DNA of 64,000 nt from a virus (Duplodnaviria > Caudoviricetes). This document shows positions 687 to 23,762 of this stretch, piece by piece (the stretch's first letter is position 1; every line of letters begins with the position of its first letter). The stretch lies in the IMG/VR virus record IMGVR_UViG_3300010163_000003, positions 128,001-192,000 of that record; one strand, written 5' to 3'. The notes beneath the pieces are model-generated. The model had not been told where the DNA came from, ran no database searches, and was given only the letters and a program-made list of their open reading frames with translations. A program made the position numbers and the translations under genes.

Positions 687-3600
687 TTATTGAGCTAATT
701 CTGCAAATTTGTTTGCTAACCAATTATCATTTACTCCACTATTGTCAATATAAGAATACATAGAAGTTGAGCCACCGCCAGCTTTATTTATTATAGCTCC
801 ATTATTTTGCGCATTAATATCCATTTGGGTTTTTGCTCTAATATTAAAAGACAATCCACTGTGTGTATCTTGATATATTACATTTCTACTTTTAGGCGTT
901 GAAGGAACTTGTTTACCATTAATGTTGGGTTGATTATATAAACCAGATTCTTGGGGCTGTAATGGAGTCTTGTCTTGATCTTTATGCATAACGTTAGTTA
1001 ACAATCCCAATGCAACTAAAGAACCAGCAGCCATACCTACATGTTTTTTTGATATATCTAAATCAGATAAAGTATCATCAAAAAACTGTGACAAAGTCCT
1101 TCTTTTTAATGGATTGTTTGCATTGTTATTATTTAATATTTTAATAATTTCTCTATCACTTAAAACTTTGTTTTTATTTAAATATGATATAATGCTGTCT
1201 GTTTGTGCCTTTAAGCTTTCAACTCTATGACTAATAGACTCTGACATACCAGAAAGAGATAATGCATCTGAAGCTTTAAATACATGTCCACTAGCTTTAT
1301 ATTCTTCTAATTTTTTAAGAGTAGTCTCCACAGAGAATTTAATCTTATCGCTAGGTTTTTTACCAAGCATTTTCGATGCTTCTTCTAAAACATAATCATA
1401 ATCTTTTGAATTAAGATTACTAAATTTAGTCCCCATAAATGATCCAAAGCCTACACGCATTTCATCAAAAGACCCATTAAAATTAAATAAAGAAGCTGCA
1501 TCGTCTGATTTGACAAGCATACTAAATATTTTATCTTGAGCTTGTTTTATAGAGTTTAAACGCTCATTTTCCATAATGTCTATCAAAGAACCTGGGGTTC
1601 CTTTAGGACCCAAGTCTGTATATTTATGTGAAAGCATTTCTTTTAATGTATCAAGCTGTTCAGTTGGAGCATTAGGTTTAGCCTGAATTTTCTTTATATA
1701 TTGCTCTAAAATATCATATTGACCTTGAAGTCTTTTTGCCTCACTAGGTATATCATAAACGTTTTTGCGGAGTTTTTCAATACTTTCGTAATAATTTTGA
1801 AAATCGAAGTTACCAAGAGCGTTGACTTTATTATAATGATGTTGCATATTAGCACTAGAGTCAACGTTTAACACTTCTTGTTCAATGGTTTGTTTAAATA
1901 TTTCATTAAGAGTGCCTAAAGATTTAATTGCGTCTTTATCGTTGAAATTAATTTTTCGTCCATTATTTGCTATATTTTTATTGACACTGCGTAATAATTC
2001 TACTGCTGGATCTAAGCCACGTTGTCCAGCATCTATCATATATTGCGCACGCCAAGATTCATACGCATTACCAAGTTTTTTAGTTTCATCAAACGTAGTT
2101 ATTATTGCACTTAATGCCTTATTTGGATCAGTATCTGTAATACCTAATATTTGTTGAAGTACGCTTGTCATTGGAGCTGAGCTACCTGCTTCTCCATAAA
2201 ACTGGCCAAGATTAGATATTCTACCATATTTGTTCTTAGATATGCCAGTAGCTCTTAATATTGATTTTTCAAATGTTCCTGTAAATTCTGGAGTATTAGT
2301 ATTTTTATTTATTTTTGCCGTTCTTATCTTGGATGTACCATTACTTTCATAAAGTATAGCGTCATCAAGCATGCCAGTTAATTTAACCTCTGCCGCATCT
2401 TTTTGTATATTAACTCTAAGCTCTGGATCAATATGAAGATTACCTATATAATAAGGAGAAGAGCCTTTAGAAGAATCATGGGTTATTTGTTTAAAGAATT
2501 TTTCTTCAAAAGTAGCATTAGGACTATGCAAGTCTATTACTTCGCCTTTTAATTGTACGCCTTTATCGTTAATATTTACTCTATTAAATTTCCCATTTCC
2601 AGTATAAGCATAGTAATTAATTTCTGCGTTATTTTTACCTAATTGTCCAGTATATGTGTATAATGTATTGACATCAAATGGATCTCTTAATGCATTTACT
2701 TTTGTCATTAAATATTCTGCCATGTCAGTATCAATAGCGCTGACAAGTTTCTTTACATCTTTAGGGTTTAATGATTTAAGGTTGTTTATCATATCTTCTA
2801 ACCCAAAAAGATCTCTACGCTTCATTACTGTATTCCATACTTCAGTTAATTCTGGAACTTCAATTTTAGCTTTGTTCATTAAATGAAAAGAACGAAGATA
2901 TTCTAACAAAGCGGTATCGTCTTGAGTAAATACTTTACCATTAAGAGTAACTGTTTCTATTACGCCTTGTAAGTTAGATTGTTTAAGAATCCTTAAAGCA
3001 TCATCTATTTGATTTAATGTTACGCCAGGCCCTATATGAGGAATTCCATTTTTACTAAATCCATTGACTTTCCTTAAGGAATCGCCCATTATAAAGTTAT
3101 CGACATAAGTTTCTATTTCATTGTCATTTATTTTTAATACTTTAGAGCCAATGGAATCAACCATTCCAATCATATGTAATCTTTGAGCTTGGACATCATT
3201 AGTCTCTAAAAACCCATAAGCATGTTCACTAAAGCGTCTAATTTTTGATAAATCTAAACTATCTCTAGCATGTTTTGGGTCAACGGCTGTTTGTTCTGTT
3301 ACACTAAACAAACCACCATCTCCACTAAGCATGTTTGAAAAACTAATTAATGACTCATTCATAAGTTTAGTTTGTTCGCCAGTTAAATTCTTTAAGCTCA
3401 TAGTTTGATAGAATGTTTCTTTAATGCGATACATAGGAGTTGAAACATGCCCAATTAAATTTTTTCTTAACCTTGCTACAGTCGCAGATACTAATTGAGC
3501 TTCATTCAATAATGTGTTACCTACAGAAGACTTAAAGAATGAATCTACCTCATTAGAATGTAAAGCTGCTTCAAAAATGCCAGAAAATTTTTTATCTTTT

Positions 3601-6600
3601 TGGTTACTTAATATATCTTCAACTTTATATGTGCCACCATTAAGATGTATACGATTATCACTTGACTGGCTTGCTAAATTATTAAGATATTCTTTTATAG
3701 AATTTTGATATTCTTTACTATCAATAATCTCTAATAATTTAGATTTTTGTTTGTTAACTGCGCTTGGATCGTTAAACAAAAACGGATTGCCTTCTTTAAT
3801 TGCTTCACTTAATAAGATTGGAGCTTCTCTAGTGATAAATCTTTCATATCTAGTTTTTTGTAAATTAAATAACTTAGAATTAGATTTTAATATACTGGCG
3901 CCATCAGCGATTGTACTTACAAATACTTTATCTCCATCAAAATCTAAGTGAGTTAAGTATGACAATATAGGATTGGATACGTTTACTTGATTCCCTGATA
4001 GATGTTCTCCTAAAGCAAGTCTAACAATTGGCTGACTACGAAATGACGGGAAACGTAAAAACTCAGCAAAAATACCTACTTCACTAAAGAATTGTTGAGC
4101 TATGCCACTTTGTTTAAAAAGTTTAAGATTACTTCCAAGTAAGCCTTCAGCATTTTTAAACTGTCCTTCAAGAATTTCATCATACTGTTTTAATGCTTTC
4201 TCTGCGCTATCTATACTATCTTGCATTGCTGCTCGTATTTGTTTATATGCATCTCTATCTTTAACACTGGCATTTACTTTTTCTATTCCTTCTAGGACAT
4301 GTATTTGTTCTCGTGATTTGTCTAATGTTCTTTGAGCTTTCTTTTTACCTTCTTGAATTACTCCCATATAGTTATCAAGAGTACTTATTAAATTACCTTG
4401 GCCTTTAATTTCTAATTTATCTATAGTTTGATAATATGTTTTACTATCAACTTTAGCCATTTTCTTAATCGCACTATCAATATCTTTATCAGTACCTGAT
4501 TCAAGAAGAGTATGTATATCTTCTAACGTTTTATTGTTTAATCCTGCAATTCTATTAGACTGGAAACTAATTGACTTAAGATGATCTGGAGGTTTTGTGT
4601 TATCATTAAATGCTTGAATTAAATCATTATATGATTTTTGGAATCTACTACTTTGAACAAGATCACTCATGCCTTCAATAGTATATTTTCCATCTTTCAT
4701 ATGTTTCTCGTAATCATTGATTATATCTGCTGCTACAATACTAAAATCGTATCCTTGACGCTCTAAAGCTTGTTGACTTACTTGAACGACAAGACCGTTA
4801 TATTCTACTCCATTAATAGTTGTTCTAGCAAGTTTTTTTAAAGAGTCACTAACGTTATCTGGCAATATTAATTTTGCAGCATTACTAGAATTAGTAAGAA
4901 CTTCTTTACTAGAAGCCTTTATTGCGGCATCAAAATCATTCTTCGCTTGAGTTAATTCCTCAATAATGCTCATATCATATGGATTATCACGAAGTTGAGC
5001 ATATAATCCTTTTTGCGTACTAGTTCCACGTAATTTTTCATATGCTTTTCTAACGTTGCTATTTTTAGCAATTTGTTCTTCTAATAACGGAGAGAATTCA
5101 CTTTGTCCTAAATACTCAGAAGAATTAGGCATTACAAAACTCTGAAAAGCTTTATAAATATCAGTATCTTTTTTCATAAAATCTGTTTGTCTGTAAAGTT
5201 CTTTAACCATGGTGCTATATATCTTGCCGATTCTTTCATTCATTACTTCTCGTATTATTTTTGGATCATCATTTCCAATAGTGTTACCAAGAGAATTAAC
5301 CAAAAATTTACCAGGATTTTTTCTTAATTCATCAATTTCTTTTAATCTTTGATTTACAATACCTATGCTTTTTTGAAACAAAAACTTTTCGTTTTCTTGA
5401 ATAGTGGTAACTCCGTGTATTGGAATAAGTAATCCTTCTAATTCTGTGCCATTTACTTTTGGCTTAATAACATGAACATCTGGATTATTGTCTAAAGCAA
5501 CAAATATGTTAAAGCTATCATTATTTAGATCTACACCTTGTTCTCTAGCTTTTTTAAGTAAGAATTCGCTTGGTTTACCATCTATAAAAAACATTGTGTT
5601 ATCTAGGTCTTTTACCCTATCATAACCAGTGCGCATTCTTTCCCCATTGCCTTCAACTATTTCATCTAAAGTTAAAGTAAGTATATTAGACTTTTTTATA
5701 TCTTCTAATGTATATTTGCCTTCTAAGAATTCTTTAGAATATTTTGTTCCAACAATGCCACGTCTTAATTCTTGATGTGGATTATTTTGACGAGCACGTT
5801 CATAGTTTAAATCCATCGCATAGTCGTTGAGTTCTTTACCAAGATATTTAAGTTCTTTTAAAGATTTTGTTTCACCATGAGTACGCCCATACTCTAATGC
5901 TTCTTTTTTTAGTAATTGCATGTACTCTACATCTTTTGGATCTATTCCATGAACAGTATCATTATAACCAAATGGGTCTTTAAATAGTCCACGGAAAATT
6001 ATGCCTTGCTCAGCACGTTTATCCATAACAAAATATTTGCCCATATGATCATTCATAATTTGTCTACGGAAAGTAAACCAGTCTGACATAGTTGCTTCTA
6101 GATCATCAAGTTCATTTATAATAGATTGACTAATCGAATTTCCATTTTTAGTTGCATCTTCTCTAAGCAAATCTTTAAGCTTAAGATCAAATGACGATGG
6201 ATCAGGCATTTCTGCCATTGTTACATAAAGACGTTTATTGTCAGCAGAAGCTTGAAAAGATATATTTGGCGTTTTACCATTAATAGGGTCAAATTGGTGC
6301 GTATCTTTAGCTGCTTGATTCATTAAATCAACTAAATGATCTACTTGTCCAGCTTTAGAATATCTATCAGTTGCCAAATCAAATATTGCTTGTGCATGCA
6401 TTATTCCGCCATGTTTGCTGAAATTAGGATTGCCAACAAATATAGCGCCATCAAACATTTCGCCAAATAATGTAGAAAGTAATGTATTTGCTTGTTGCTT
6501 ATTATAAACATTGCTACCCTGGTTTATAATTGAATAAATATCTTCTGGTCTGATTGAGTGTACAGTGGCTTTTTCAAGACCATTTATTGTTATCTTTTGA

Positions 6601-9600
6601 TCAACAATATCTCCTACATAAGTTTCTAGTCTAGTTTTCCCTATTCCATTATCTATGCCAGACAATAATTGATCTACATTTTCCTGAGTTAATATAGATT
6701 TAGGTTTATTAAAGAATATACGAGAACCATCATTTCTAAATCCAATAACAGTATTTGTATCTATATCTTTACCAACTAGATTATTTAATAATTCAGTGGT
6801 TCTTTGTATATCTGCTTTGCTCCAGTTTAATTCAAGCTTAACTGCATCTGGTTTTGTGAAGAAATCAAATTGTTGTATAAATGGATTAGCAAACATTTTA
6901 TCTTCATAAAGAGAATTATAATGAGCTTGAAACACTTTTATTAATTCCCTTGTTTGCTTAGAATCTACACTAACTCCAGTTTGAGATAATTTTTTAGCTA
7001 ATGAATCTATTGCTGCATTATCAGACAGTATGTCATTGTACTTAATTTGCAAGTCAGCATCATTAATAAATTTGAATCTAGCCATAAATTCATGTTCATC
7101 TAATGTTATTTTGCCATTAGTACTAGCTTCGAGACTGTCTTTAATTCCTTTCTCTAAATGAGTCATAGCGTTATTTCCAAAAGATATAGCGCTATAACCT
7201 TTTTCAGTGAGACCTTTAGCCATATTAGGGGCATTAACGTTATTTGATAACTGTGATAATACACTAGATACTTGATTTATGTCATATGTAACAGGATTTC
7301 CTTGCTGTACATATAACGGACGCATTATATTGTATAAGCCAGAATGTGTCTGAAAATCACCAAACATACGTGAATAATATATACCACGCTCTAAGGCGCT
7401 TTCAGAACCTATAGGATTAAGTCCAGAAGTTTTATTAACATTTACAACTCGTGATACCGCATCTACAGCAAAATCACTAATCATAGAATCTTTACGAATT
7501 CTATCATCATGTATAAGGTCATTAATAATATTGAGAAAATTTTTAGAATCTCCAGTATCAAAGAAGTCTTCATAACCAGCATTTTTAAAATTAATTCTTA
7601 ATTGATCAGCCCAAGATACACCATTTGCTTGCCAGTCTTCACTTAATACAGTACCAATCAGCATACGCCTATGGAAAAACTCATGAAATTCTTGACTGTT
7701 CAATATTTCACGGTAAGAATATAATGAATTAACATCTCCAAGCCCTACATGTTCTGCAAATGTTTTAACAATAAGTTGTGCAGGATTTAGCTCAGCAGAA
7801 ATAGCATTAGGATTTTTAAATGAACCTAGGGTTAACTGTTCAAATATATCACGTAGTCCTTTATGATAACTATATCCAAAAGCATTCATTATACTATTAG
7901 GATTAAGATGTACGTTACGGCTTACTCCACTAATAGAATTATCTGAAGCTAATCCTCCAAGGTAGTCAGTAAGAATTCTACGCATTCTACGGCTACCTTC
8001 TCCATAATTACCATCTAAGGCTAATTCTTCTGCATTAGCAAGTCCCTTACGAAATATGGACAATACGGCAGTAGAACCATCACCTTCACTAACTTGGAGA
8101 ATTCCGTTTTTGTCAAGATAAGTATCCAATGAACGGGCATGTAAGTACTTAGGATAGTTATCTCCTTGATTAATGAAACGTAAAGATTCAACAGATGCAA
8201 GCCCAGAATTGTTTGAACGTATATCAAATTCTCTAACCCTTGGTAGTTCTACTACGGTAGCGTATTTACTAATATCACTATCCATTACATTCTTATAAGA
8301 AGATGTAATATTTTTAAATTCATCGTCTGTAAGATTATCTATAAAAGAAGCAAGTTTATGAGAATCACCTGTCTTGGTAAGAAGCATATATCCACTTTTA
8401 CCTTCGTGTTTAGCAACATTAAGATTTGAATAAGGAGTAATGATTAATGCTTGTAGTCCTTTTCCTTTTTTAGAATTTAAACTATATTTTTTACTGTCAA
8501 GAAGTATATCATTAAGTAATTTTGTTTTAGCAGCTATATCTTCACTAGTGCCATAATTCATTCCTAAAGCTTCTAGCAATGAACGTTCAAAAGTTTCATA
8601 TTGTAAGTCGGTAGCGGCAGACGTAATATATCTATATGGAGTATAATTATCAAATACTTCTTTTATTGCATCATTTACTTTTTTGGCTTGTGTAGGATTT
8701 GAATTTAAATTATTGAAAAAGTCTCTTAGGCTACTATCTTTATATTTAAGAAATGGAGCATCAATATCATAGTTATCATGACCTATACTATGCAATATAC
8801 GTTTTTGTACATCTTCATCGGACATGCTCGATGTTATAGAATCAGCAAGTATACTTCCCGGAGTATTTTTCAGCTTCCATATTTCAGTAGCTATCTCTGT
8901 AGATAAACCAAAAGTATAAGAACTTTTTTGTTTAGCATTAAGAGGAAGAAGAGAATCTAGTGTTTTGATATATTTACTAGCATCTTTAATAATTCCTCTA
9001 TCTTGTAAATTATTTAATCCATTGATAATTGTATTGTTGTCTTTAGCTTCATCTAAGAAATTTTTTATTCCTTGTTCTATTGTCTTTTCGCTATGATCGT
9101 TTATTCTTTTGAAAGCCCCATTGTCAGAAATAATGTCAAAATCATAAAGGTCTGAATATGAGAAACGCCCTCTATCTTTAAAATATTCAAAAGCTCCACT
9201 ATTATCAAGTTCAATATTCTCGCTCTCTAATACTTTAGCTAAAGCTTTGCGTATTTTAGAAAATAAGACTGTCTGTTCTCTATTGAGTTCTGGAGAATTT
9301 ATACCAGATAAAGGTTGTGATGGATCATAAGGGGAGTTCTTAAAATAATCATTAACTGCTTTAAATATTACATCATGCACAGGAGATTCATTATCTAAAA
9401 TTCTCTTATAGGACAAAAAAGCCTGCATTTCATATGGAGTGTTAATTAATCCATTTTTGAGAGCATTACTTGATCTTCTTGAAGTACCAAAAGTTTGTTC
9501 AATAAAACTTTTTAAATCTCTATATCTTGCATCATAATCAGTAAGAGGATTTATAGAAGCAAGATGATTATTATAAGCTTCATTGAACTTCCTTATCTCT

Positions 9601-11453
9601 GCTAATTTTTGATAGCCATTAGCACCAATTTGTCTTTTAAGAGTATTATCATATTCCATGCGAACTTCTGATGGATCAAAAAGTCTTGCAATTTCTCTTC
9701 TACCAGAATCCAGAGAATCATTTTCTCTAATAGTTTGAATGAAATTTTGAGTTAATGAACTTTCGTCATATATGTCTGCTCCATTAATAATACGGTGCAA
9801 TCTTTCAAATACCTCTTCTTGAGTATCCCCAACAAGATACATTACATCTGCATCTGCACCCTGAGCATAATTCCGTAAAGCAATAGAATATCTTGTTACG
9901 TTCTGGCCATCTATATTTTGAGTAAACGTTTTAGTTTGAGAAGTGTCAACTTTCCAAAAATTATTCTTAATCGAATAAGAGTTAGTTCCAAAGTCATCTC
10001 CAGCTTGTACAACAAATTCTTTAGCTTCTTCTTTCTGTAAAGCTCCTGAGCGAAGATAGAATACTGTATTATCTAAATCTCCATAAGTTAATTGTTTAGT
10101 ATAAGGCTCTTTCTTTAAGGCTTCCAGCGCGTTACTATTATTAGAAAATAGAATAACGTCATTGTCAATCAATAACCCTTGGTTATTGATATCACTTATA
10201 GCAATATGAGCTTGGTGTTCTTGGAGTCCTAATGCTTCAAGCCTTTCGTTTATAGATACACCAACTCGTTTACCATATAATAATTCATTTAATTCTAATG
10301 GACTTAAATGTTGAGCTTCTGCAACAGCACGAACAATATGAATGTTATCTAATATTTTACTTTGAGCAATTTTAAGCTTCTTGATTAATATCTCTTTTTC
10401 TTGAAGAGTTTTGGATGATTGTTTTACGTATGCTATTAACCTATTAACATCGAATTCACTATTCGCTGCGTTTAAAAAATTAGTGTCGGTAGGATTGTCT
10501 ACAATTTTGTCAATAACAAGTGAAATAAAATCATCAGCAGCATTAGAGAATCCATTTTTCGAGTCTAATATTGCATTACTTGCTTGTTCAAAATTACGCC
10601 AACCGCTGAGAGCTTCAGCATAATTTATATTTGTTGGCTTACCCTTTTTTACTACTTTGTATTTATGTTTTTGTCCAAATAAATCAACTTCAACATCAGT
10701 AAAAACATCAGTATAATTACCAGCATAAACAGCAGCACGCTCCATAGAAATTCTTTCAGATTCGCTTAAGCTATCCCAGCCATATTTCCTAAATTTCTCT
10801 AGCGTATCCATCATAAATTTCTTTTGTGGAGCACTTGTCATAGGAACAACAAATGATTGTCCTCTGGGGTCTGGAACGCTGTGTAATTTTCTATCGTATC
10901 TTCTTAAATTAACGCCTAACTCTGTAATAGTTGAAGTACCATCGGCAATATCGCCTAATGTTTCTGTATCGAATCCCCATAAAGAAATATTCTTATATAA
11001 GCCATTATCTCCTTTATCTATAACAGCTTTGGCAAATGCTTGCCATCTATCATGAGCACCCAATACTTGATCTACAGACTTCTGATTAATATAAGTAGCC
11101 ATTTTTAAATAGTCTGTAGGGTCAAATGATGAAGTATTAAAATTTACTCCAGTATTAAGAATAGCTTGTGGAGTTTGATCAAGAAGTTCTCTTTGCAAAT
11201 TCCAAGCTTGATTCCTATAATTAGAACGTAATATTTTTCTAGCAGTTTCTTCAGTATCAGCTTGACCTGAATTTATCAAATTACTAATTTCATTTAATAC
11301 ATTTTGATCTGTTGTACTAGATGATTTTCTAATAGCGTAAGTTTCTGGATCTAATCTGCTTCCATCATATTCTACAGTAAATTTATTTGCATTATTATAT
11401 TGTGACCAAACATCTGGTAATCTATAATGAAATGCATATATTTCATCTCTCAT
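687..11453 (-). CDS. Giant virion protein (3588 aa): N-terminal DEDDh 3'-5' exonuclease, single-chain two-barrel (DPBB) RNA polymerase and C-terminal hydrophobic segment; putative virion RNAP at the tape-measure locus
   Basis: Exonuclease motifs FDTET (D162/E164), NSEFD (D335) and HIAISD (H416/D421). RNAP motifs YED (E1517/D1518), K1620-x7-K1628, RFP (R2467), LDFDGD (D2504-D2508) and AVDPK (2723-2727). Hydrophobic VGMAAGSLVALGLLTNVM near the C-terminus. Confidence 0.8.
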   Translation of the reverse strand: MRDEIYAFHYRLPDVWSQYNNANKFTVEYDGSRLDPETYAIRKSSSTTDQNVLNEISNLINSGQADTEETARKILRSNYRNQAWNLQRELLDQTPQAILNTGVNFNTSSFDPTDYLKMATYINQKSVDQVLGAHDRWQAFAKAVIDKGDNGLYKNISLWGFDTETLGDIADGTSTITELGVNLRRYDRKLHSVPDPRGQSFVVPMTSAPQKKFMMDTLEKFRKYGWDSLSESERISMERAAVYAGNYTDVFTDVEVDLFGQKHKYKVVKKGKPTNINYAEALSGWRNFEQASNAILDSKNGFSNAADDFISLVIDKIVDNPTDTNFLNAANSEFDVNRLIAYVKQSSKTLQEKEILIKKLKIAQSKILDNIHIVRAVAEAQHLSPLELNELLYGKRVGVSINERLEALGLQEHQAHIAISDINNQGLLIDNDVILFSNNSNALEALKKEPYTKQLTYGDLDNTVFYLRSGALQKEEAKEFVVQAGDDFGTNSYSIKNNFWKVDTSQTKTFTQNIDGQNVTRYSIALRNYAQGADADVMYLVGDTQEEVFERLHRIINGADIYDESSLTQNFIQTIRENDSLDSGRREIARLFDPSEVRMEYDNTLKRQIGANGYQKLAEIRKFNEAYNNHLASINPLTDYDARYRDLKSFIEQTFGTSRRSSNALKNGLINTPYEMQAFLSYKRILDNESPVHDVIFKAVNDYFKNSPYDPSQPLSGINSPELNREQTVLFSKIRKALAKVLESENIELDNSGAFEYFKDRGRFSYSDLYDFDIISDNGAFKRINDHSEKTIEQGIKNFLDEAKDNNTIINGLNNLQDRGIIKDASKYIKTLDSLLPLNAKQKSSYTFGLSTEIATEIWKLKNTPGSILADSITSSMSDEDVQKRILHSIGHDNYDIDAPFLKYKDSSLRDFFNNLNSNPTQAKKVNDAIKEVFDNYTPYRYITSAATDLQYETFERSLLEALGMNYGTSEDIAAKTKLLNDILLDSKKYSLNSKKGKGLQALIITPYSNLNVAKHEGKSGYMLLTKTGDSHKLASFIDNLTDDEFKNITSSYKNVMDSDISKYATVVELPRVREFDIRSNNSGLASVESLRFINQGDNYPKYLHARSLDTYLDKNGILQVSEGDGSTAVLSIFRKGLANAEELALDGNYGEGSRRMRRILTDYLGGLASDNSISGVSRNVHLNPNSIMNAFGYSYHKGLRDIFEQLTLGSFKNPNAISAELNPAQLIVKTFAEHVGLGDVNSLYSYREILNSQEFHEFFHRRMLIGTVLSEDWQANGVSWADQLRINFKNAGYEDFFDTGDSKNFLNIINDLIHDDRIRKDSMISDFAVDAVSRVVNVNKTSGLNPIGSESALERGIYYSRMFGDFQTHSGLYNIMRPLYVQQGNPVTYDINQVSSVLSQLSNNVNAPNMAKGLTEKGYSAISFGNNAMTHLEKGIKDSLEASTNGKITLDEHEFMARFKFINDADLQIKYNDILSDNAAIDSLAKKLSQTGVSVDSKQTRELIKVFQAHYNSLYEDKMFANPFIQQFDFFTKPDAVKLELNWSKADIQRTTELLNNLVGKDIDTNTVIGFRNDGSRIFFNKPKSILTQENVDQLLSGIDNGIGKTRLETYVGDIVDQKITINGLEKATVHSIRPEDIYSIINQGSNVYNKQQANTLLSTLFGEMFDGAIFVGNPNFSKHGGIMHAQAIFDLATDRYSKAGQVDHLVDLMNQAAKDTHQFDPINGKTPNISFQASADNKRLYVTMAEMPDPSSFDLKLKDLLREDATKNGNSISQSIINELDDLEATMSDWFTFRRQIMNDHMGKYFVMDKRAEQGIIFRGLFKDPFGYNDTVHGIDPKDVEYMQLLKKEALEYGRTHGETKSLKELKYLGKELNDYAMDLNYERARQNNPHQELRRGIVGTKYSKEFLEGKYTLEDIKKSNILTLTLDEIVEGNGERMRTGYDRVKDLDNTMFFIDGKPSEFLLKKAREQGVDLNNDSFNIFVALDNNPDVHVIKPKVNGTELEGLLIPIHGVTTIQENEKFLFQKSIGIVNQRLKEIDELRKNPGKFLVNSLGNTIGNDDPKIIREVMNERIGKIYSTMVKELYRQTDFMKKDTDIYKAFQSFVMPNSSEYLGQSEFSPLLEEQIAKNSNVRKAYEKLRGTSTQKGLYAQLRDNPYDMSIIEELTQAKNDFDAAIKASSKEVLTNSSNAAKLILPDNVSDSLKKLARTTINGVEYNGLVVQVSQQALERQGYDFSIVAADIINDYEKHMKDGKYTIEGMSDLVQSSRFQKSYNDLIQAFNDNTKPPDHLKSISFQSNRIAGLNNKTLEDIHTLLESGTDKDIDSAIKKMAKVDSKTYYQTIDKLEIKGQGNLISTLDNYMGVIQEGKKKAQRTLDKSREQIHVLEGIEKVNASVKDRDAYKQIRAAMQDSIDSAEKALKQYDEILEGQFKNAEGLLGSNLKLFKQSGIAQQFFSEVGIFAEFLRFPSFRSQPIVRLALGEHLSGNQVNVSNPILSYLTHLDFDGDKVFVSTIADGASILKSNSKLFNLQKTRYERFITREAPILLSEAIKEGNPFLFNDPSAVNKQKSKLLEIIDSKEYQNSIKEYLNNLASQSSDNRIHLNGGTYKVEDILSNQKDKKFSGIFEAALHSNEVDSFFKSSVGNTLLNEAQLVSATVARLRKNLIGHVSTPMYRIKETFYQTMSLKNLTGEQTKLMNESLISFSNMLSGDGGLFSVTEQTAVDPKHARDSLDLSKIRRFSEHAYGFLETNDVQAQRLHMIGMVDSIGSKVLKINDNEIETYVDNFIMGDSLRKVNGFSKNGIPHIGPGVTLNQIDDALRILKQSNLQGVIETVTLNGKVFTQDDTALLEYLRSFHLMNKAKIEVPELTEVWNTVMKRRDLFGLEDMINNLKSLNPKDVKKLVSAIDTDMAEYLMTKVNALRDPFDVNTLYTYTGQLGKNNAEINYYAYTGNGKFNRVNINDKGVQLKGEVIDLHSPNATFEEKFFKQITHDSSKGSSPYYIGNLHIDPELRVNIQKDAAEVKLTGMLDDAILYESNGTSKIRTAKINKNTNTPEFTGTFEKSILRATGISKNKYGRISNLGQFYGEAGSSAPMTSVLQQILGITDTDPNKALSAIITTFDETKKLGNAYESWRAQYMIDAGQRGLDPAVELLRSVNKNIANNGRKINFNDKDAIKSLGTLNEIFKQTIEQEVLNVDSSANMQHHYNKVNALGNFDFQNYYESIEKLRKNVYDIPSEAKRLQGQYDILEQYIKKIQAKPNAPTEQLDTLKEMLSHKYTDLGPKGTPGSLIDIMENERLNSIKQAQDKIFSMLVKSDDAASLFNFNGSFDEMRVGFGSFMGTKFSNLNSKDYDYVLEEASKMLGKKPSDKIKFSVETTLKKLEEYKASGHVFKASDALSLSGMSESISHRVESLKAQTDSIISYLNKNKVLSDREIIKILNNNNANNPLKRRTLSQFFDDTLSDLDISKKHVGMAAGSLVALGLLTNVMHKDQDKTPLQPQESGLYNQPNINGKQVPSTPKSRNVIYQDTHSGLSFNIRAKTQMDINAQNNGAIINKAGGGSTSMYSYIDNSGVNDNWLANKFAELAQ

Positions 11454-11462
11454 TTATATCAC

Positions 11463-14400
11463 CTATATATTCATATTTCCTATACGTGATTCTACATCAG
11501 ATCTTCCATCTTTGTATACTTCCATTTTAGTTTGTGTATCATTTAAAGCGCTTGTATAAGATATTTGAACATCATCATATCCGTTTTCACCAAGAATATG
11601 TTTAAGCCTTGTACGTATTTGAGCAGCATTTGTATGTTTATCTATTTTAGGAATAGGAATATTAGTCATATTAGCTTTATTTTTATTATCTTGCCATATA
11701 TCAAATTCACCGGGGTCTAATTTTTCTTTATGGACAAGTTTAACTTTAACATCATCTAAATTAGTATTTTCATCCCAACCTACCCAATTTGCATTAGGTA
11801 AGGCATGCTGAGTAAAATATTCTTGTAAACTAGGTTTTACATCTGGCTTCATTCCCCAAGTCGATTGTAATGCTCGTCTCATATAGCTTGGAGCAACACG
11901 AAGTATTTTATCTTTTTCTTCTTCTGGAGCATTCATGAAATGCTTAAAATATTGTCTATCCTTTTTAGGTAATGCAGACATAATATCTACCATTGATTTT
12001 CCTGGCTCATATCCATACATGGTTTTATCGGCTGCATTTTTATATTGAATAGCTTTCATAGCATTTAATGGAACCTTGACAGTTTTTCTATCACTTTGTA
12101 TTTCTTTGATTTCTTGATTTACTGCTTTAATGATTCCTTCTCTTCCCATATTTGGTTTCATATATTTTGGTTTACCATATTGAAAATCGAATTTATCACT
12201 ATGTTTAAAATCCATTTTAACTTGCCGCTTATATGCTTCAAGCTCTTGCTTTCTTATTTTATTATAAGCACCATGTGATTCTGTGCTATTCATATATTGG
12301 CGAACATCGAAATGATCTTCCGCCATAGACTTGTCTGCATATTGATTAAATAAACGCATGTTTTTTACATACTTTAAAGTATCAACGTATTCGTTTACTT
12401 TTTCTTGTTGTACTCTTCTGTTTGGTCTCCAATCTCTTTCTTTAGTAGAACCAGCAGAAAAAGCAATCTGGCCTATTGTTGGGATAGCTCCTCCAACAAA
12501 TCCTCCCATTATTGCACCAAAATTATTTCTACCAAATAATCTACCTATAAATGTACCAGTAACTATGCCAAGTAATCCGTTTGCAATTGGTTTATCAACC
12601 ATGTTAGGCATAAATAAGTCTCTAATTGGATGATCCCAGCTTTGAAAGTCTTTCCCATATACTTCTCTATCTCTATATTGTTCATATGGAGAACGTACTT
12701 GATAAATTTTGCTACCTATAAATGGGATATTTCCAATAATACTATGGGCAGTTGTTTCCATTGCAGAACCAAATGCGATTTCTCCTTTGCTATATCTCGC
12801 ATGAATACCAGCAGGAGAATCATCGTTTTCATTTTCTTTAGCATGACCTTTATTAAGCAATATTTGATTTACATTTCTTCCTCCAGAAATAACAACAGAA
12901 CGTATAGAGTCAGTAGAATCGCCAGAAAACTTATTAGCAGAATCTGCATCGTATTGGATAGTAATTCTTCCACCTTTATGTATATGCTTTTTAATTTCAT
13001 CGTAAGCCGCTTCACGTTTCGTTGGCCCCTTTTCTAATTCTTTACGGATATTATGAATTATTTTTTCAGCGCCTTTACGTCGTTTGCGCGGATATTCTTT
13101 TTTGTTAACTAAGTCACTAGATTCTGTTACAGTAATACCAGCAAACTTAATAGCATGCTGCGCACCATATTCTTTAGTGACAATAGTATTGTTGTCTAAT
13201 ATTTTGTCTACAGTTACAACTTCACTAACAAGATTCGATGTTTTAAATTTATAAGGATATACACGAAGAGGTTCTTTCTGCTGAGTTATTCTTTTGCGAA
13301 TTTGTTGAACTTCTTTTTTTTCTTCATCAGTTAATTGTTCACGAGATAACTTAGCAGTAGCTTGTTTAAACTCATCAGAATAGGGTGCTACATCCGCTAG
13401 AATGCGATATTGATCAAGAGGACTATATAAGTCACCTCTACCTATTACGCCTTTTTCTATGCCCTTTCTGATGTCAGCACGAGCGTCATTAAGATTCTTT
13501 AAAGTATCGCGAAGTAATTTATCGTCATATTTAAACCCAACAGTATATGAGTCCGTAGGATTTTCTTTGTCTACATAATGAATATATCCTTTAGACTCTG
13601 TATTGCCAGTTGCCCATAAATAATAATTTACTTGACGCTTATGATAGTCTAATGGTCTGCCACTTTTTCGGAGTTCTTTAAGCTTCTTTGCAGACGTTGT
13701 TTTAATATCAACTATACCAACACCAGTGGGTGAACTCATGTCATATACAGCAGCGTCAAAATATCCAAGTATGCCATTACGTTCATCTTTTATTTCGCCT
13801 TCCGTTTTAAAAGCTATACCTTGTTCTTTCCAAGCAGCTTCTATTTGTCTATGCAGTTTAGTTCCTTTATTAAGAGTATCTTCTTGGAATTGAGTATTAA
13901 CAAAATCTTGATGCAACAAATGACGTATAATATGTTCTTTATCGTACCCAATAGATGAAGATCCTGTACGCATATCTAAAACATTATTAATGCCATACAT
14001 GCGTTCATACCCTTCTCCAGGCAAACGTTCTTCGCCATTAGCGATTTTAGTATATGGATCTCCATGTTTAAAATCTGTAAAATAGTTACTACCAGGCATC
14101 CAATCTGGCATTGTGTTTCTTATTGGATTAATATATTCAGTTGTAGTATTGCGTTTAGGCATAAAACGACGAGATATTTCTGACAGGCTTCCACCGAGAC
14201 CGCCCATGTTTTCATCCCAAAAAGAACGACGAGCGCTATATGCCCAACCAGAATCTTCTATAGTTCGAGCATCGACATTATGTTTACCAGTAATAAGAGA
14301 TTGTGTTATAAACCCTTTTAAACCTGCTACATCTGCTAACCAGTTTAGTTCTTCTTTACTATTATACATAAAAGCATTGTCTATTGCTTTAGAATCATTG

Positions 14401-17400
14401 CCAACAGGTATATCAGGATTTAAATTAGGAGTTAATTCTACTCTGTCTTTAGCACCAATAATTTTTTTAATACTATATTCTTTTAAGTCTTTATTTACTT
14501 CCCACAAGTTCATATCATTTGGTATATCAACTACACTTAATTTACCAGAAGGAGTAGAATATATCTCATATGGTGGAACAGAATCGTCATGACCAGATAT
14601 GCTATAGCCATATGGACTAGGTAGCGTGTCAGGCGTATAAGGTTTAGGTTTATAAGATTGAGCTTTTGGAAATGCAGAATAAAGAGCATCTGTAACAGAA
14701 TTTGAAGGCATTTTTTGAATAATGTCTCTAACGTCAAATGTAACACCATTAGAATTAGTAGTTTTGTATTTAACAATTTTTTGAGCTTGATAAATAGAAG
14801 CATCCATCGCTTGAGTATAAGCTGCTTGATTTGCTGTTAATTCTTTTTGCAATTCTACAAAACTATTAATATTTTCTTGTGCTTGAGCCATAAATTTTTT
14901 ACGATTTAATTCAAGTTTTCCTGTTGTAAGTATAGGATTGGGTTGCTCGTCTGCTGGATTAACATTTATTTGACCTTGATACTCCATATGCATCATTTGA
15001 GGAGGAGAAATAATAGTTCCTATAGTAGATGCAAATATAGGTCCTATAAACGGAATATCATTGCCAATTGGAGCAGTTTTAAGATATGGTCTATCCTGAA
15101 GATGTTTATAATCATAATGATGTTTGTCGAAAATAAAATAGTTTAATGGAGCCAATGGATTAAAGATATTCGGATACCAAGTATGATTATAATATTCTTT
15201 ACGAGAACCCCACTTAGTATCACTAAAATCAACATCAGCTTCAATACGACGATATAAGTTTGGTCTCCAGTATTCTATTTTCCCTCCAGTAAACGGAGTA
15301 TTACCTGCTCCCCACCAGCGTCCTTTACGGATAGGATCAAAGCCATTTTCAATATACTCTTTACGTTCTTCTTTGGTTTGTCCTAAACCCATTTGATGTA
15401 TCAATGGTAATTCCGTTATTTGTTCAGTGCCAGGAATCATGTCTTGCATAAATTTCACAAGTTTAGTAGCTCCAGTAATATCCATCATGTTATGAGCTTG
15501 AATATCTAATGGCTTTACAACTTTTCGCATTAAAAACTTTGTTATATTGTCTTGTTTGCCAGTATTAGTTTCATCATCCTTTCTAAAAAATGGTTCACTA
15601 AGATAGTTAATCATATCAGGAACCTGTGTAAGCATATATATCGGTAATGCACGTTTAGCTATTAAATTTCCAGCATAAGACCCTACGCTATGTTTTGCTT
15701 GAGTACTAAATCCGAAAAGATATACACTGTTAGCTAACTGATTATTTAATGCATCAAATAATCCCCAAGTTCTAGTAGTCCGCTCTGTAAAATATTTGCC
15801 AGCCATGCCATTTCTGTCGAATCCAGAACCAAATTGTCCAACAAATTTTATTAAATTTTCAAAAGCATCGACAGGTCTTTTGTCCATTAGATCTGTTACT
15901 ACAGTTCCGAGCTTATACCCTTCTTTAGTAACATTAAAAGTATGCGGGGTATACTTTATATTGTTTTTAATATATTCACCAAATCCATTGCCAAGAACGT
16001 CACTATGATCATATTTTTGAGCAGCTTGCAACATCTCATTAACCGAGTCATATTCAAATCCATTCACTCTAATTTTTCTTGTCATTCTATCTATAAACCT
16101 ATCAGTAGTTTCATCTATTGCAGTTGCGCTATCAAAACTTCTGGTAATATCTTTCGCTTCTGTTTGCCATTCTTCAAATCCCATGTCTAATACTTTTGCT
16201 GTTCTGTATCTAAGTTTTTCTGAAGCTGTTAATTTTCTACCAAGACGTTTTTCGTAATCCGTTATGCTTTCTTTGATAGGTTCTCCATATGACAATCCAG
16301 CCATTTCTCTCATAGCATTAATTTGATGAGTGCCATATCCATAACGAGTCATGTTAGTGGTGTCATACAAATGAAGGTTTTCCGCTATTTTCATTAACCT
16401 TCCATCAGTAGTAGTAGTGTAAGCAGAACCATTAATGACAGCTACAGATTTATTTGCATATTCATCTCCAAGATTTTCTGCTAACCATTCTCCTATTGTA
16501 TATCTACCACCACGTTCAGTAAGAAATGGACTAATTTGCTCGCTACTTAACAAGCCAGCAAAAGGCTCTTTGTATCCGAGCTTATTCAAACCAAGATAAT
16601 TAAATCCACTTTTTAAAGGATTAAATTTAACAACAGGTAATCCAAAATCTTCAGCAAGAGAATTAATAAATCCATATAAATCTTGTTTGGGCATACGATA
16701 ATCTATAAACTTACCAACTTCATCTATGCGAATATCTGAATCTAAGGTTAAATTTTTCCATGCTCCTCTAGAATACATTGTTTGAACATGACCAAATTCA
16801 TCTGTATATTTATGATTAAGATTACCCATAAAATTATTAATGCTATCTAGGAAAGAATGTCCCATTTGGTCTTTCGCTTTGTCTAAATCAATAACAGCAT
16901 TACTTTTTACTTGTAATCTTTTAATGCCATTAGAGTCAATTACTTCTTCTAAAATATCTCCAAGAACCAATTGGCGATATCCTGTTGTACGCAATTGTTC
17001 TCTTGCTTTTTCAGCGGTTAAACTTCTTAATTCCAAAAATTCTTCCATCATTTTTTGAGTATATATAGAAGCTTGATCTGGATGATATTCGGTAGCAGTA
17101 AATTCAACTTCTTGTAGGCGTTGCATAAATTTCTTAAGGTCAGTATCAAAATAAGAATATCTTCTTTCTGTAGAACGAGAAAGTCCGTCTTCTATTATAC
17201 TATGCATAACTTTTAAATCGTCTTCAGTATCTTGTAATATACGCTTCATGCGATTAAAGTGAGACATAGAAGAAGAACCAGTCAAGTCTGATATATCTTG
17301 AAATAAATCAAAAGCAACACTACTTGAACGCTTATGAAATAAGCTATGTTCTGGAATATTCCAACTACGACCAGATTTTGCAAGAGCTGAAGAATCTATA

Positions 17401-17684
17401 TGTTCAGAATTAGCCCACTTTTTTATGCTAGACATAACAACGCTAGCTTTATCTAACCCTTGTTCAGAAATAACATCGCCAAGTTCTAGCATAGGTTTAA
17501 TTATTCCCTTTAAAAGGCCAGATTTATATGTACCGTAACCAGCTATAGCAATTAAACCCATTTTTACGGCATTCAGTAATACACTGGCATCGTTCACGTT
17601 TTGTGGGTCATTAACGGTCGCATTATCTTTATCGTTATAATTCCCTGTTAGCGTTCTTTGCTGCAATCTGTTGTCTGATGGCAT
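11463..17684 (-). CDS. Large tape-measure/ejection-type virion protein (2073 aa) with PD-(D/E)XK nuclease, SNase-like domain and membrane segments
   Basis: Follows the tail chaperone pair. GTKLH...GYFD...IVDIKT...QVNYY nuclease motifs at aa about 1274-1355; VDKILDNNT...VNQILLNKGHA SNase-like fold; Gly-zipper GLLGIVTGTFIG...GAIMGGFVGGAI; N-terminal hydrophobic MGLIAIAGYG. Confidence 0.7.
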   Translation of the reverse strand: MPSDNRLQQRTLTGNYNDKDNATVNDPQNVNDASVLLNAVKMGLIAIAGYGTYKSGLLKGIIKPMLELGDVISEQGLDKASVVMSSIKKWANSEHIDSSALAKSGRSWNIPEHSLFHKRSSSVAFDLFQDISDLTGSSSMSHFNRMKRILQDTEDDLKVMHSIIEDGLSRSTERRYSYFDTDLKKFMQRLQEVEFTATEYHPDQASIYTQKMMEEFLELRSLTAEKAREQLRTTGYRQLVLGDILEEVIDSNGIKRLQVKSNAVIDLDKAKDQMGHSFLDSINNFMGNLNHKYTDEFGHVQTMYSRGAWKNLTLDSDIRIDEVGKFIDYRMPKQDLYGFINSLAEDFGLPVVKFNPLKSGFNYLGLNKLGYKEPFAGLLSSEQISPFLTERGGRYTIGEWLAENLGDEYANKSVAVINGSAYTTTTDGRLMKIAENLHLYDTTNMTRYGYGTHQINAMREMAGLSYGEPIKESITDYEKRLGRKLTASEKLRYRTAKVLDMGFEEWQTEAKDITRSFDSATAIDETTDRFIDRMTRKIRVNGFEYDSVNEMLQAAQKYDHSDVLGNGFGEYIKNNIKYTPHTFNVTKEGYKLGTVVTDLMDKRPVDAFENLIKFVGQFGSGFDRNGMAGKYFTERTTRTWGLFDALNNQLANSVYLFGFSTQAKHSVGSYAGNLIAKRALPIYMLTQVPDMINYLSEPFFRKDDETNTGKQDNITKFLMRKVVKPLDIQAHNMMDITGATKLVKFMQDMIPGTEQITELPLIHQMGLGQTKEERKEYIENGFDPIRKGRWWGAGNTPFTGGKIEYWRPNLYRRIEADVDFSDTKWGSRKEYYNHTWYPNIFNPLAPLNYFIFDKHHYDYKHLQDRPYLKTAPIGNDIPFIGPIFASTIGTIISPPQMMHMEYQGQINVNPADEQPNPILTTGKLELNRKKFMAQAQENINSFVELQKELTANQAAYTQAMDASIYQAQKIVKYKTTNSNGVTFDVRDIIQKMPSNSVTDALYSAFPKAQSYKPKPYTPDTLPSPYGYSISGHDDSVPPYEIYSTPSGKLSVVDIPNDMNLWEVNKDLKEYSIKKIIGAKDRVELTPNLNPDIPVGNDSKAIDNAFMYNSKEELNWLADVAGLKGFITQSLITGKHNVDARTIEDSGWAYSARRSFWDENMGGLGGSLSEISRRFMPKRNTTTEYINPIRNTMPDWMPGSNYFTDFKHGDPYTKIANGEERLPGEGYERMYGINNVLDMRTGSSSIGYDKEHIIRHLLHQDFVNTQFQEDTLNKGTKLHRQIEAAWKEQGIAFKTEGEIKDERNGILGYFDAAVYDMSSPTGVGIVDIKTTSAKKLKELRKSGRPLDYHKRQVNYYLWATGNTESKGYIHYVDKENPTDSYTVGFKYDDKLLRDTLKNLNDARADIRKGIEKGVIGRGDLYSPLDQYRILADVAPYSDEFKQATAKLSREQLTDEEKKEVQQIRKRITQQKEPLRVYPYKFKTSNLVSEVVTVDKILDNNTIVTKEYGAQHAIKFAGITVTESSDLVNKKEYPRKRRKGAEKIIHNIRKELEKGPTKREAAYDEIKKHIHKGGRITIQYDADSANKFSGDSTDSIRSVVISGGRNVNQILLNKGHAKENENDDSPAGIHARYSKGEIAFGSAMETTAHSIIGNIPFIGSKIYQVRSPYEQYRDREVYGKDFQSWDHPIRDLFMPNMVDKPIANGLLGIVTGTFIGRLFGRNNFGAIMGGFVGGAIPTIGQIAFSAGSTKERDWRPNRRVQQEKVNEYVDTLKYVKNMRLFNQYADKSMAEDHFDVRQYMNSTESHGAYNKIRKQELEAYKRQVKMDFKHSDKFDFQYGKPKYMKPNMGREGIIKAVNQEIKEIQSDRKTVKVPLNAMKAIQYKNAADKTMYGYEPGKSMVDIMSALPKKDRQYFKHFMNAPEEEKDKILRVAPSYMRRALQSTWGMKPDVKPSLQEYFTQHALPNANWVGWDENTNLDDVKVKLVHKEKLDPGEFDIWQDNKNKANMTNIPIPKIDKHTNAAQIRTRLKHILGENGYDDVQISYTSALNDTQTKMEVYKDGRSDVESRIGNMNI

Positions 17685-18369
17685 CTAATACCTCCTCATC
17701 ATTCCAATGAACTCCGCCAATCAATGGGAAGTCAACTAATGTACGATGGTTCAAATCTTGTAAATTGTCTGCGAAGTAAAACATTGGGTCAATGCCATTC
17801 TTGATAAGTTCTTGTATATACTCTTCATTTTCAATATCAATTTTAGAAACGGCTTCATTAAACTCTTCGCTCTTGTCTTCAACATGCCAATCGAATCCTT
17901 TAAGCGCAGCTACCTTTTCTGCTCTTACAACTATTTGCATTAGTTTGGTCCATGTCCATGTTTCCATTTCTTCGTAAGTATATTCGGGGATAAATGCCTT
18001 TATTAAATCCATGCATTGAGTATCAAGATTGTCATATGCTTTAAATTTGCGATATTCATCTAAAATATCATTTATATCTATAAACCCAGAATATTTTTCT
18101 ATATGTTGAGCGACATATTCATTTAGTCCTGCAAAACCACAATAACAAAAATCATATTCTTCTGGGAAGACACAAGCTGTATTACATATTGCATCTTCTA
18201 TATCCATTCTATCTGAATTTTCAGCTAATATATATCTATACTCTTTTCTAGTAAGAGTTCTAAAAATAAAGTCGGTATCGCAAAAGCGGACATAAATAAT
18301 TTTATGTCCGCCATACAAGTCCTTATAATAATGTAACAGGGCAATATCGACGGCTTTTTCTTGCTTCAT
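17635..18369 (-). CDS. Tail assembly chaperone (paralogue 2)
   Basis: Immediately upstream of the giant tail proteins. FIFRTLTRKEY...ICNTACVFPEEYDF...EKYSGF is paralogous to the adjacent 191-aa gene. Confidence 0.6.
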   Translation of the reverse strand: MKQEKAVDIALLHYYKDLYGGHKIIYVRFCDTDFIFRTLTRKEYRYILAENSDRMDIEDAICNTACVFPEEYDFCYCGFAGLNEYVAQHIEKYSGFIDINDILDEYRKFKAYDNLDTQCMDLIKAFIPEYTYEEMETWTWTKLMQIVVRAEKVAALKGFDWHVEDKSEEFNEAVSKIDIENEEYIQELIKNGIDPMFYFADNLQDLNHRTLVDFPLIGGVHWNDEEVLDAIRQQIAAKNANREL

Positions 18370-18372
18370 TAT

Positions 18373-18948
18373 TTAAAGTACCTCGATTCCATATTGCTTA
18401 GTAAACCCTGAGTTTTCCATAATAATTTGCGCTAAGGTACTAGGGTAGCCACTATCTTCTGCTGCCATAGTTTTAAAGTTATAGTTTCTAGGCCATAATA
18501 CACAAGTATGGCATATAATTTCTTCTCTGTATAATGCATCTATATTTTGAATACTAACTAATTGTTTATATTCAAAACGATTCATTGTACGGAAAACAAA
18601 ATGTTTTTCAAGTACTTGAGTGTGGAATATCTTTTCATTAGAGAATTGTTTTTTCCACAGCTCAACTTGACTGGCACCAGGACCACCTTCAAAAATAGGA
18701 TCGTCATCAATTAAATCATAATCCTCTTCTGGTTCTCCAGAATATTGAAGACTGATATCATTATAATTACTATCTGGACGATACTGAATAGTAGCTTCTC
18801 CATATTCATCATTTGCCATTTCTTGTTTCATGGCTGCATATATATCTTCACCTGTGACAGATTCAGAATCTCTTGCCGCAATTTTCTTTTGTACATTAAG
18901 TTTTTGATTAGCTGCACTCATTAAATCATTGAGTCTATCTTGTTCCAT
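18373..18948 (-). CDS. Tail assembly chaperone (paralogue 1)
   Basis: AGGAG RBS; acidic N-terminus; FVFRTMNRFEY...ICHTCVLWPRNYNF...MENSGF; synteny with the tape-measure locus. Confidence 0.6.
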   Translation of the reverse strand: MEQDRLNDLMSAANQKLNVQKKIAARDSESVTGEDIYAAMKQEMANDEYGEATIQYRPDSNYNDISLQYSGEPEEDYDLIDDDPIFEGGPGASQVELWKKQFSNEKIFHTQVLEKHFVFRTMNRFEYKQLVSIQNIDALYREEIICHTCVLWPRNYNFKTMAAEDSGYPSTLAQIIMENSGFTKQYGIEVL

Positions 18949-20953: not shown

Positions 20954-20988
20954 TTTATTGCCCCCTACTAGAAAAACATTTATGTCAT

Positions 20989-23733: not shown

Positions 23734-23762
23734 TATAGTCACTTCCTTTACATCTATATTTG

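Follow-up and report, generated by a model that had tools for sequence, protein, structure and literature searches.

A predicted DEDDh-type 3'-5' exonuclease at the N terminus of a giant RNA polymerase-like protein in the tape-measure slot of a jumbo myophage

Why would a phage join a 3'-5' exonuclease to an RNA polymerase (RNAP) and encode the fusion among its tail genes? The question is raised by a 64,000-nucleotide (nt) stretch of viral DNA, positions 128,001 to 192,000 of the IMG/VR record IMGVR_UViG_3300010163_000003 (Duplodnaviria; Caudoviricetes), which is referred to here as the window and belongs to a virus record of 218,431 bp. A previous annotation made from the DNA alone, referred to here as the sequence-only reading, had proposed that a giant open reading frame (ORF) in the window encodes an intact DEDDh exonuclease fused to an RNAP. 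In the present analysis this domain was examined for motifs, conservation, predicted fold and genomic setting, and it is considered fairly probable that it is a catalytically intact exonuclease, as predicted, and that it enters the host as an injected enzyme, whatever its specific role there. The ORF and the elements of its exonuclease are located as follows, in window coordinates:

687..11453, minus strand: giant ORF of 3,588 amino acids (aa), a single, uninterrupted reading frame of 3,588 codons
10119..10997, minus strand: DnaQ-like DEDDh 3'-5' exonuclease domain, aa ~153-445, assigned by motifs, conservation and predicted fold
10959..10979, minus strand: ExoI motif WGFDTET, aa 159-165 (D162, E164); D162, E164, T165 and G167 invariant in 20 sequences
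10446..10472, minus strand: ExoII motif NAANSEFDV, aa 328-336 (N331, D335); N331 and D335 invariant
10329..10358, minus strand: KILDNIHIVR, aa 366-375 (D369, R375), between ExoII and ExoIII; D369 and R375 invariant
10191..10211, minus strand: ExoIII(h) motif AHIAISD, aa 415-421 (H416-x4-D421); H416 and D421 invariant

The domain order of the 3,588-aa protein is an N-terminal DEDDh exonuclease, beta-like and beta-prime-like RNAP barrels, a C-terminal hydrophobic helix and a conserved tail. The exonuclease segment singled out by the sequence-only reading, nt 10190-10980, corresponds to aa ~159-421, and each exonuclease motif that it quoted, as well as the DFDGD at aa 2504-2508, is present in the translation at the residues it named. 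KILDNIHIVR is read as the "(v/i)Dxxx..R" element of the DnaQ family. An exhaustive HMMER search over 1.84 billion representatives yielded a family of 24 proteins (18 with E < 1e-10), nearly all of 3.1-3.6 k aa, in which the exonuclease domain occupies the same N-terminal position. In an alignment of 20 family sequences, which share 21-27% identity with the query, only 14 columns are invariant: D162, E164, T165, G167, T177, E178, R239, G284, N331, D335, D369, R375, H416 and D421. All five DEDDh catalytic residues (D162, E164, D335, H416 and D421) fall within this set, with the acidic positions D162, E164, D335 and D421 retained in 20 of 20 sequences, and the conservation pattern exceeds chance. 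Several of the other invariant columns fit the DnaQ-family patterns D-x-E-T-x-G, ITE (T177/E178), hNxxFD and (v/i)Dxxx..R. As judged from these alignments, the domain is under strong purifying selection and is always found in the same chain as the polymerase core.

The catalytic residues are set in a predicted fold that agrees with them. An AlphaFold2 model of aa 130-450, built on the family alignment, reached a predicted local distance difference test (pLDDT) score of 90 and a predicted template modelling (pTM) score of 0.87, and superposes on solved DEDDh exonucleases, as the RNase H-like fold presupposed by the sequence-only reading would require. The leading Foldseek matches to this model were RNase T, PARN, TREX1/2 and a DnaQ domain, with a probability of about 1.0, and a few HSP70/BiP ATPase domains trailed near the end of the ranking at low probability. 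In the ESM Atlas, nine of ten rows for the exonuclease are RNase_T clusters and the tenth is annotated as a 3'-5' exonuclease. VIA-align ranked the DnaQ domain 8h18 of S. thermophilus first (Z 12.9, root-mean-square deviation 3.0, 170 of 172 residues aligned), followed by 3'hExo and the DinG exonuclease domain (both Z 12.8), ExoI (12.7), and RNase T and TREX1/2 (11-11.5), and these alignments span the whole of the target domains. The structural matches also include the RNA exonucleases PARN, ERI and Orn; with Z scores tied in this way, DNA and RNA substrates are not told apart by the fold. The claim of an intact DEDDh exonuclease is thus upheld both by the fold and by the family-wide invariance of its five catalytic residues.

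The part of the model aligned by VIA-align amounts to 170-199 of 321 residues. The remainder is a well-predicted insertion of ~110 aa between ExoI and ExoII, at roughly aa 205-300, in which W226 is near-invariant and R239 and G284 are invariant; since the insertion is conserved in itself, it would be a family-specific functional element. The domain therefore resembles members of the DnaQ/RNase T superfamily (RNase T, TREX1/2, ExoI, 3'hExo, Cas2-DnaQ and the DinG N-terminal domain) in its ExoI D-x-E, ExoII N-x3-D and ExoIII H-x4-D motifs and its RNase H-like fold, but differs from them in this conserved insertion and in its setting inside a tail-module RNAP giant. Support from sequence searches alone is weak. 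When the family profile was compared with PDB sequences, all six matches were DEDD exonucleases (including the TREX1 homologue Plex9.1, RNase T and the PolC exonuclease; best E 0.0027), and the KILDNIHIVR element aligned with the TREX1-homologue chains. Single-sequence searches gave no significant Pfam match and, for aa 100-520, no PHROG or PDB sequence match, and tblastn with the exonuclease and RNAP regions found no match among 50,697 phage records. Membership of the DEDDh superfamily rests on the motifs together with the predicted fold, which describe a divergent member, bearing an insertion, that is missed by Pfam.

The second half of the proposed fusion, the polymerase, is marked by two motif regions:

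6570..6596, minus strand: beta-subunit-like motif K1620-x7-K1628 (DQKITINGLEKAT); K1620 invariant and N1624, E1627 and K1628 at least 90% conserved in 16 sequences
3930..4055, minus strand: beta-prime-like catalytic barrel, R2467-F-P ... D2504-F-D-G-D2508; R2467, P2469, D2504, D2506, G2507 and D2508 invariant

The signature D-x-D-G-D occurs in 16 of the 16 full-length relatives checked, as DFDGD in 13 and as DVDGD, DNDGD and DHDGD in one each. The R-x-P that precedes it resembles the beta-prime pattern "NRAPTLH...NADFDGD", and K1620-x7-K1628, ~880 residues upstream of the DFDGD barrel, resembles the beta motif GDKxxGRHGNKG. For a model of aa 2004-3004, the best Foldseek rows were RNAP largest subunits (vaccinia Rpo147, Rpb1, archaeal RpoA', Pol I/III/IV/V, African swine fever virus and beta-prime). 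Such subunits also accounted for 49 of 50 rows in a second look and for all long non-helical rows of an exhaustive search, with Z of 9.2-9.9 and 220-260 residues aligned. Sequence methods were silent here: searches of the RNAP region against PDB sequences (phmmer and profile) returned coiled-coil noise and no RNAP chain, Pfam scans of 16 RNAP regions found no polymerase family, and PF00623 was absent from the genome scan. A comparable lack of sequence matches is reported for crAss-like phage gp66 (bioRxiv 10.1101/2020.03.07.982082) and for P23-45 gp96 (PMC10770324). For aa 440-1300, between the exonuclease and the polymerase motifs, an ESM Atlas look-up gave weak unnamed viral clusters only. 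A two-barrel RNAP core is thus predicted in the 3,588-aa protein and is well supported by motifs and model, with a candidate beta-type barrel marked by the K-x7-K motif.

That the two predicted domains belong to one protein, as the sequence-only reading held, is apparent from the single uninterrupted chain, in which the D-x-D-G-D, the conserved K-x7-K and a modelled fold matching RNAP largest subunits follow the exonuclease. The co-occurrence that it suggested looking for is complete, with exonuclease and DxDGD found together in every full-length homologue. When four IMG/VR loci were retrieved via the polymerase region alone, all four were found to carry the N-terminal exonuclease, the D-x-D-G-D and the same C-terminal tail. 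A cultured relative was also identified: gp034 of Bacillus phage vB_BauM_KLEB27-3 (OM634661.1, 35003-42307; 2,434 aa), annotated as "structural protein", was found by the exonuclease profile with E 8.5e-17 and lies in the same slot, before a baseplate protein. In hhalign the exonuclease aligned with gp034 over 246 columns at 97% probability with all catalytic motifs in register, and gp034 also contains RYPT...DYDGD, so by its motifs it is a protein of the same architecture. Across these distant subfamilies, conservation is higher in the exonuclease (hhalign E 1e-10) than in the polymerase region (E 5e-4).

The surroundings of the gene are those of a tail module. The tail sheath shares 36% identity with its counterpart in Bacillus phage 0305phi8-36, whose gene order recurs here: two sheath genes are followed by tube paralogues, a pair of chaperone-like ORFs and then the giants, in the order gp145 homologue, 3,588-aa protein and homologue of the hub protein gp147. 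The neighbouring giants are:

11463..17684, minus strand: upstream giant, 2,073 aa, gp145 homologue (BLASTP E 3e-38; phrog_1706 E 4e-14)
~13455-13787, minus strand: PD-(D/E)xK / Cas4-like nuclease domain in the gp145 homologue, aa ~1300-1410 (Pfam PDDEXK_1 E 0.015, Cas4 E 0.13)
122450-128671 of the record: downstream giant, 2,073 aa, homologue of the gp27-like hub gp147 (match E 2e-47)

With a gp145 homologue on one side and a gp147 homologue on the other, the 3,588-aa protein occupies the slot of gp146, the putative tape measure of 0305phi8-36 (PMC2147016). Gene order and homology thereby place the gene in the tape-measure slot of a 0305phi8-36-like jumbo myophage. In 0305phi8-36 itself, gp146 lies in this slot between gp145 and gp147, and both gp145 and gp146 are virion proteins by mass spectrometry according to the record notes. 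The PD-(D/E)xK-type domain of the gp145 homologue reads GYFDA...VDIKT...QVNYY; this homologue is 63% identical in a related phage and also has a Gly-rich hydrophobic segment. A second nuclease would thus travel in the tail module.

The C-terminal end of the 3,588-aa protein bears two further elements:

984..1040, minus strand: hydrophobic Gly/Ala-rich helix at about aa 3472-3490, VGMAAGSLVALGLLTNVMH, read from the translation
690..728, minus strand: conserved C-terminal tail DNWLANKFAELAQ, which ends 16 of 16 complete relatives and the four IMG/VR loci

The helix is a candidate membrane segment, and an equivalent hydrophobic stretch was seen by eye in two further family proteins and in KLEB27-3 gp034. 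The tail has the consensus (D/N)NWL(A/E/S)NKFAEL in every complete family member. KLEB27-3 gp034 ends similarly with NWLQQKFSD, and the extreme C terminus of 0305phi8-36 gp146, SWLEKQFGD, resembles the NWLANKFAE of the 3,588-aa protein. The motif possibly marks the end by which tape measures of the 0305phi8-36-like lineage dock to the hub. The proposal that gp146 is a cryptic member of the family was rejected, as it has no DxDxD motif, no match to the exonuclease profile and no significant overall similarity. A likeness confined to the C terminus fits the observation of Hardies et al. that tape measures in the 0305phi8-36 lineage could be aligned over their last 60 residues only (PMC2147016).

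Taken whole, the 3,588-aa protein is closest in kind to gp96 of Thermus phage P23-45, a tape-measure-fused virion two-barrel RNAP that precedes the DNA into the host (Chaban et al. 2024, PMC10770324). The two proteins have in common the tape-measure position, giant size, a DFDGD two-barrel RNAP and a membrane segment in the same chain, the last being a candidate here. They differ in that the RNAP is N-terminal in gp96 (aa 327-1124) but lies at aa ~1,370-2,900, behind the exonuclease, in the protein described here, and no sequence similarity between them was detected. P23-45 also differs in having a long non-contractile tail, as opposed to the contractile tail of this jumbo phage. P23-45 has a second, separate two-barrel polymerase, giving a virion and non-virion pair. 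The counterpart here is a separate 1,740-aa protein (genome 203578-208800, plus strand) that matches the Pfam RdRP family (PF05183) above the cut-off (E 1e-15, 57.9 bits), has DFDGD at aa 1018 and is itself the counterpart of 0305phi8-36 orf99; it is a candidate non-virion polymerase, and its local similarity to the 3,588-aa giant is restricted to the catalytic barrel. The word "exonuclease" occurs 0 times in the gp96 paper (PMC10770324).

Among other polymerases, phi14:2 gp66 and QDE-1 are single-chain two-barrel enzymes, as predicted for the 3,588-aa protein, and gp66 is packaged in the virion. Single-stranded or denatured DNA is transcribed efficiently by gp66, its own native double-stranded genome weakly and double-stranded M13 DNA not at all, while QDE-1 of Neurospora is reported to prefer single-stranded DNA (bioRxiv 10.1101/2020.03.07.982082). 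The word "exonuclease" is absent from the same preprint. The 3,588-aa protein was not assigned to the gp66 family (PDB 6VR4), with which, as with QDE-1, phmmer and profile searches of PDB sequences gave no match. We take gp66 to lie outside a tape-measure slot, crAss-like phages being podoviruses. The virion RNAP of coliphage N4 (about 3,500 aa) is likewise a giant polymerase carried by the virion and ejected with the DNA, and its promoters are single-stranded hairpins. It is, however, a T7-like single-subunit polymerase and not a two-barrel one, and the phage, a podovirus, packages it in its head; we know of no report of an exonuclease domain in it. No paper describing an exonuclease fused to a virion RNAP, a tape-measure RNAP or a two-barrel RNAP came up in full-text literature searches, in line with the sequence-only reading, which had known of no characterised DEDDh-RNAP fusion.

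The tape-measure slot, which the sequence-only reading did not mention, shapes the mechanism proposed for the exonuclease-RNAP protein. From the P23-45 precedent and the slot, the protein would be housed in the tail and leave it before the DNA does, entering the host first. Tape measures lie with their C terminus at the tail tip, and if the 3,588-aa protein has such an orientation, its N-terminal exonuclease would be at the head-proximal end, beside the leading end of the DNA. There the two-metal DEDDh site could digest the strand that carries the 3' end, at the incoming end of the genome or at nicks, and the resection would expose single-stranded DNA as template for the fused polymerase. The model is put forward because the gp66 virion RNAP, and QDE-1, prefer single-stranded templates. 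This 3'-end resection holds the largest single share among the specific roles considered, but it is offered tentatively, as less likely than not. A more particular version, and a somewhat more doubtful one, makes the exonuclease an initiation device that grips and resects the first-entering 3' end and hands the single-stranded template to the fused RNAP. First transcription could then take place without promoter melting or host factors, possibly with the cooperation of the neighbouring PD-(D/E)xK giant.

Several observations weigh against this interpretation or parts of it. The Pfam check of the exonuclease region suggested by the sequence-only reading ended below threshold: RNase_T (PF00929) was the family matched, at E 0.04-0.1 and through the ExoIII half alone, but its 13.5-14.9 bits fall short of the cut-off of 24. 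Model quality for aa 2004-3004 is moderate (pLDDT 68 overall, 85-90 in the barrel itself), unrelated helical matches reach the same range as the Z of ~9.5 obtained for the RNAP region, and none of the known single-chain two-barrel RNAPs, including crAss gp66 and QDE-1, is among the fold matches listed, although nothing is concluded from the absence of gp66 and QDE-1. In 0305phi8-36 the exonuclease module is, by sequence, dispensable, since the protein in the same slot lacks both the exonuclease and a DxDxD motif. The lumen of the tail tube would have no room for a folded 35-kDa exonuclease and an RNAP core, which would need to be unfolded or housed elsewhere. Finally, a resected 3' end leaves the 5'-ended strand, on which transcription would run outward, towards the terminus; under the resection model, early transcripts should therefore arise at the first-entering end and point outward.

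Other roles were weighed against resection. The domain may be an attack or counter-defence nuclease that, together with the PD-(D/E)xK giant, degrades host DNA or RNA or defence nucleic acids after ejection and independently of the polymerase. This is judged unlikely, though less so than the roles that follow. In its favour are the presence of two nuclease domains of different superfamilies in adjacent tail-slot giants, the strong selection of its own implied by an exonuclease that outconserves the polymerase region between distant subfamilies, and structural neighbours that degrade DNA (TREX1, its homologue Plex9.1 and ExoI). However, no defence-related or host-takeover context was found, the strictness of the fusion, kept in every full-length member, points to a task shared with the RNAP, and 0305phi8-36 has the PD-(D/E)xK giant without the exonuclease. 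DEDDh exonucleases need a free 3'-OH, moreover, and cyclic signalling nucleotides are poor substrates for them. The coupling to polymerase is left unexplained if the domain processes genome ends for circularisation or recombination-dependent replication, by 3'-5' resection of both terminally redundant ends so that the complementary 5' strands anneal. The genome of the related 0305phi8-36 is non-permuted with a 6.5-kb terminal repeat (PMC3357382), which suits this role, as does an exonuclease that would sit beside the DNA end if the protein lies as a tape measure does. Yet 0305phi8-36 has its terminal repeat and no exonuclease in the slot. In the present record, the "direct terminal repeat" is a 115-bp identical overlap of the two record ends inside an ORF; this suggests the overlapping ends of a circular or permuted assembly rather than a physical terminal repeat. 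Circularisation is regarded as improbable.

An RNA-directed role, in which the domain trims or proofreads the 3' ends of transcripts made by the fused polymerase or removes misincorporated or backtracked RNA, has in its favour the physical joining to an RNA polymerase and the close structural matches to the RNA exonucleases RNase T, 3'hExo, PARN, ERI and Orn. Two-barrel RNAPs, though, use their own active centre to cleave backtracked RNA, more than 1,200 residues of unrelated sequence separate the exonuclease from the first polymerase motif, and literature searches found no precedent. Transcript proofreading is hence ranked low, slightly below circularisation, and end resection is ranked first. 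It is very improbable that a phage DnaE-type DNA polymerase borrows the domain as an epsilon-like exonuclease for replicative proofreading. The genome does encode a DnaE, with DNA_pol3_alpha matches in two separate open frames ~2.5 kb apart (genome 44054-47340, plus strand), a split consistent with a gene interrupted by an intron or intein, and the domain of the 3,588-aa protein is the sole DnaQ-like or DEDDy-type exonuclease detected in the genome. But it is embedded in a late-made tail-module protein, of which few copies would enter with the DNA, and 0305phi8-36 also uses DnaE without the exonuclease domain; PHP domains of DnaE can themselves proofread. It would be just as surprising if the domain were a catalytically dead structural relic, serving as a folded plug or docking module only. 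The sub-threshold RNase_T score and the large family-specific insertion could be read in that way, but the five metal- or water-activating residues are invariant at ~25% identity, also in the very distant KLEB27-3 protein, and such invariance is not expected without catalysis.

Virion-carried RNA polymerases make the start of infection independent of the host, and tape-measure-fused two-barrel enzymes are, to our knowledge, experimentally known from one phage group only (P23-45, in 2024). The family described here would extend this principle to 0305phi8-36-like jumbo myophages. Its new element is the pairing of a conserved, apparently active (as predicted) 3'-5' exonuclease with the RNAP, a pairing found in no paper; what the phage injects is probably a combined nuclease and polymerase. 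A template-preparing role of the nuclease would, if real, account for the way in which ejected single-chain polymerases with a preference for single-stranded DNA, such as crAss gp66 and QDE-1-like enzymes, start on a double-stranded genome; should the exonuclease act as an initiation device, it would represent a new way for a DNA virus to begin gene expression. KLEB27-3 gp034, as a cultured relative, makes the fusion directly testable. Annotation of giant "structural proteins" by Pfam only misses enzymatic ejection proteins of this kind.

Upstream of the giants, the tail module contains additional ORFs with counterparts in 0305phi8-36:

18373-18948, minus strand: first tail-chaperone-like ORF
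17635-18369, minus strand: second tail-chaperone-like ORF; the two match each other's PHROG families 29362 and 29368
19340-21022, minus strand: 560-aa ORF with an endolysin-like cell-wall hydrolase/binding domain
21847-23742, minus strand: 631-aa ORF with an endolysin-like cell-wall hydrolase/binding domain fused to a tube-paralogue N terminus

The chaperone-like pair resembles gp143/gp144, the two-gene tail chaperonin described for 0305phi8-36 (PMC2147016). The start of the gp145-homologue ORF overlaps the end of the second chaperone-like ORF by 50 nt. The two giants that flank the 3,588-aa gene are both exactly 2,073 aa long, yet have only a Gly-rich hydrophobic segment in common, and were rejected as paralogues. 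Of the two ORFs with endolysin-like domains, the 560-aa ORF aligns in position and size with gp142, and the 631-aa fusion is built like gp141.

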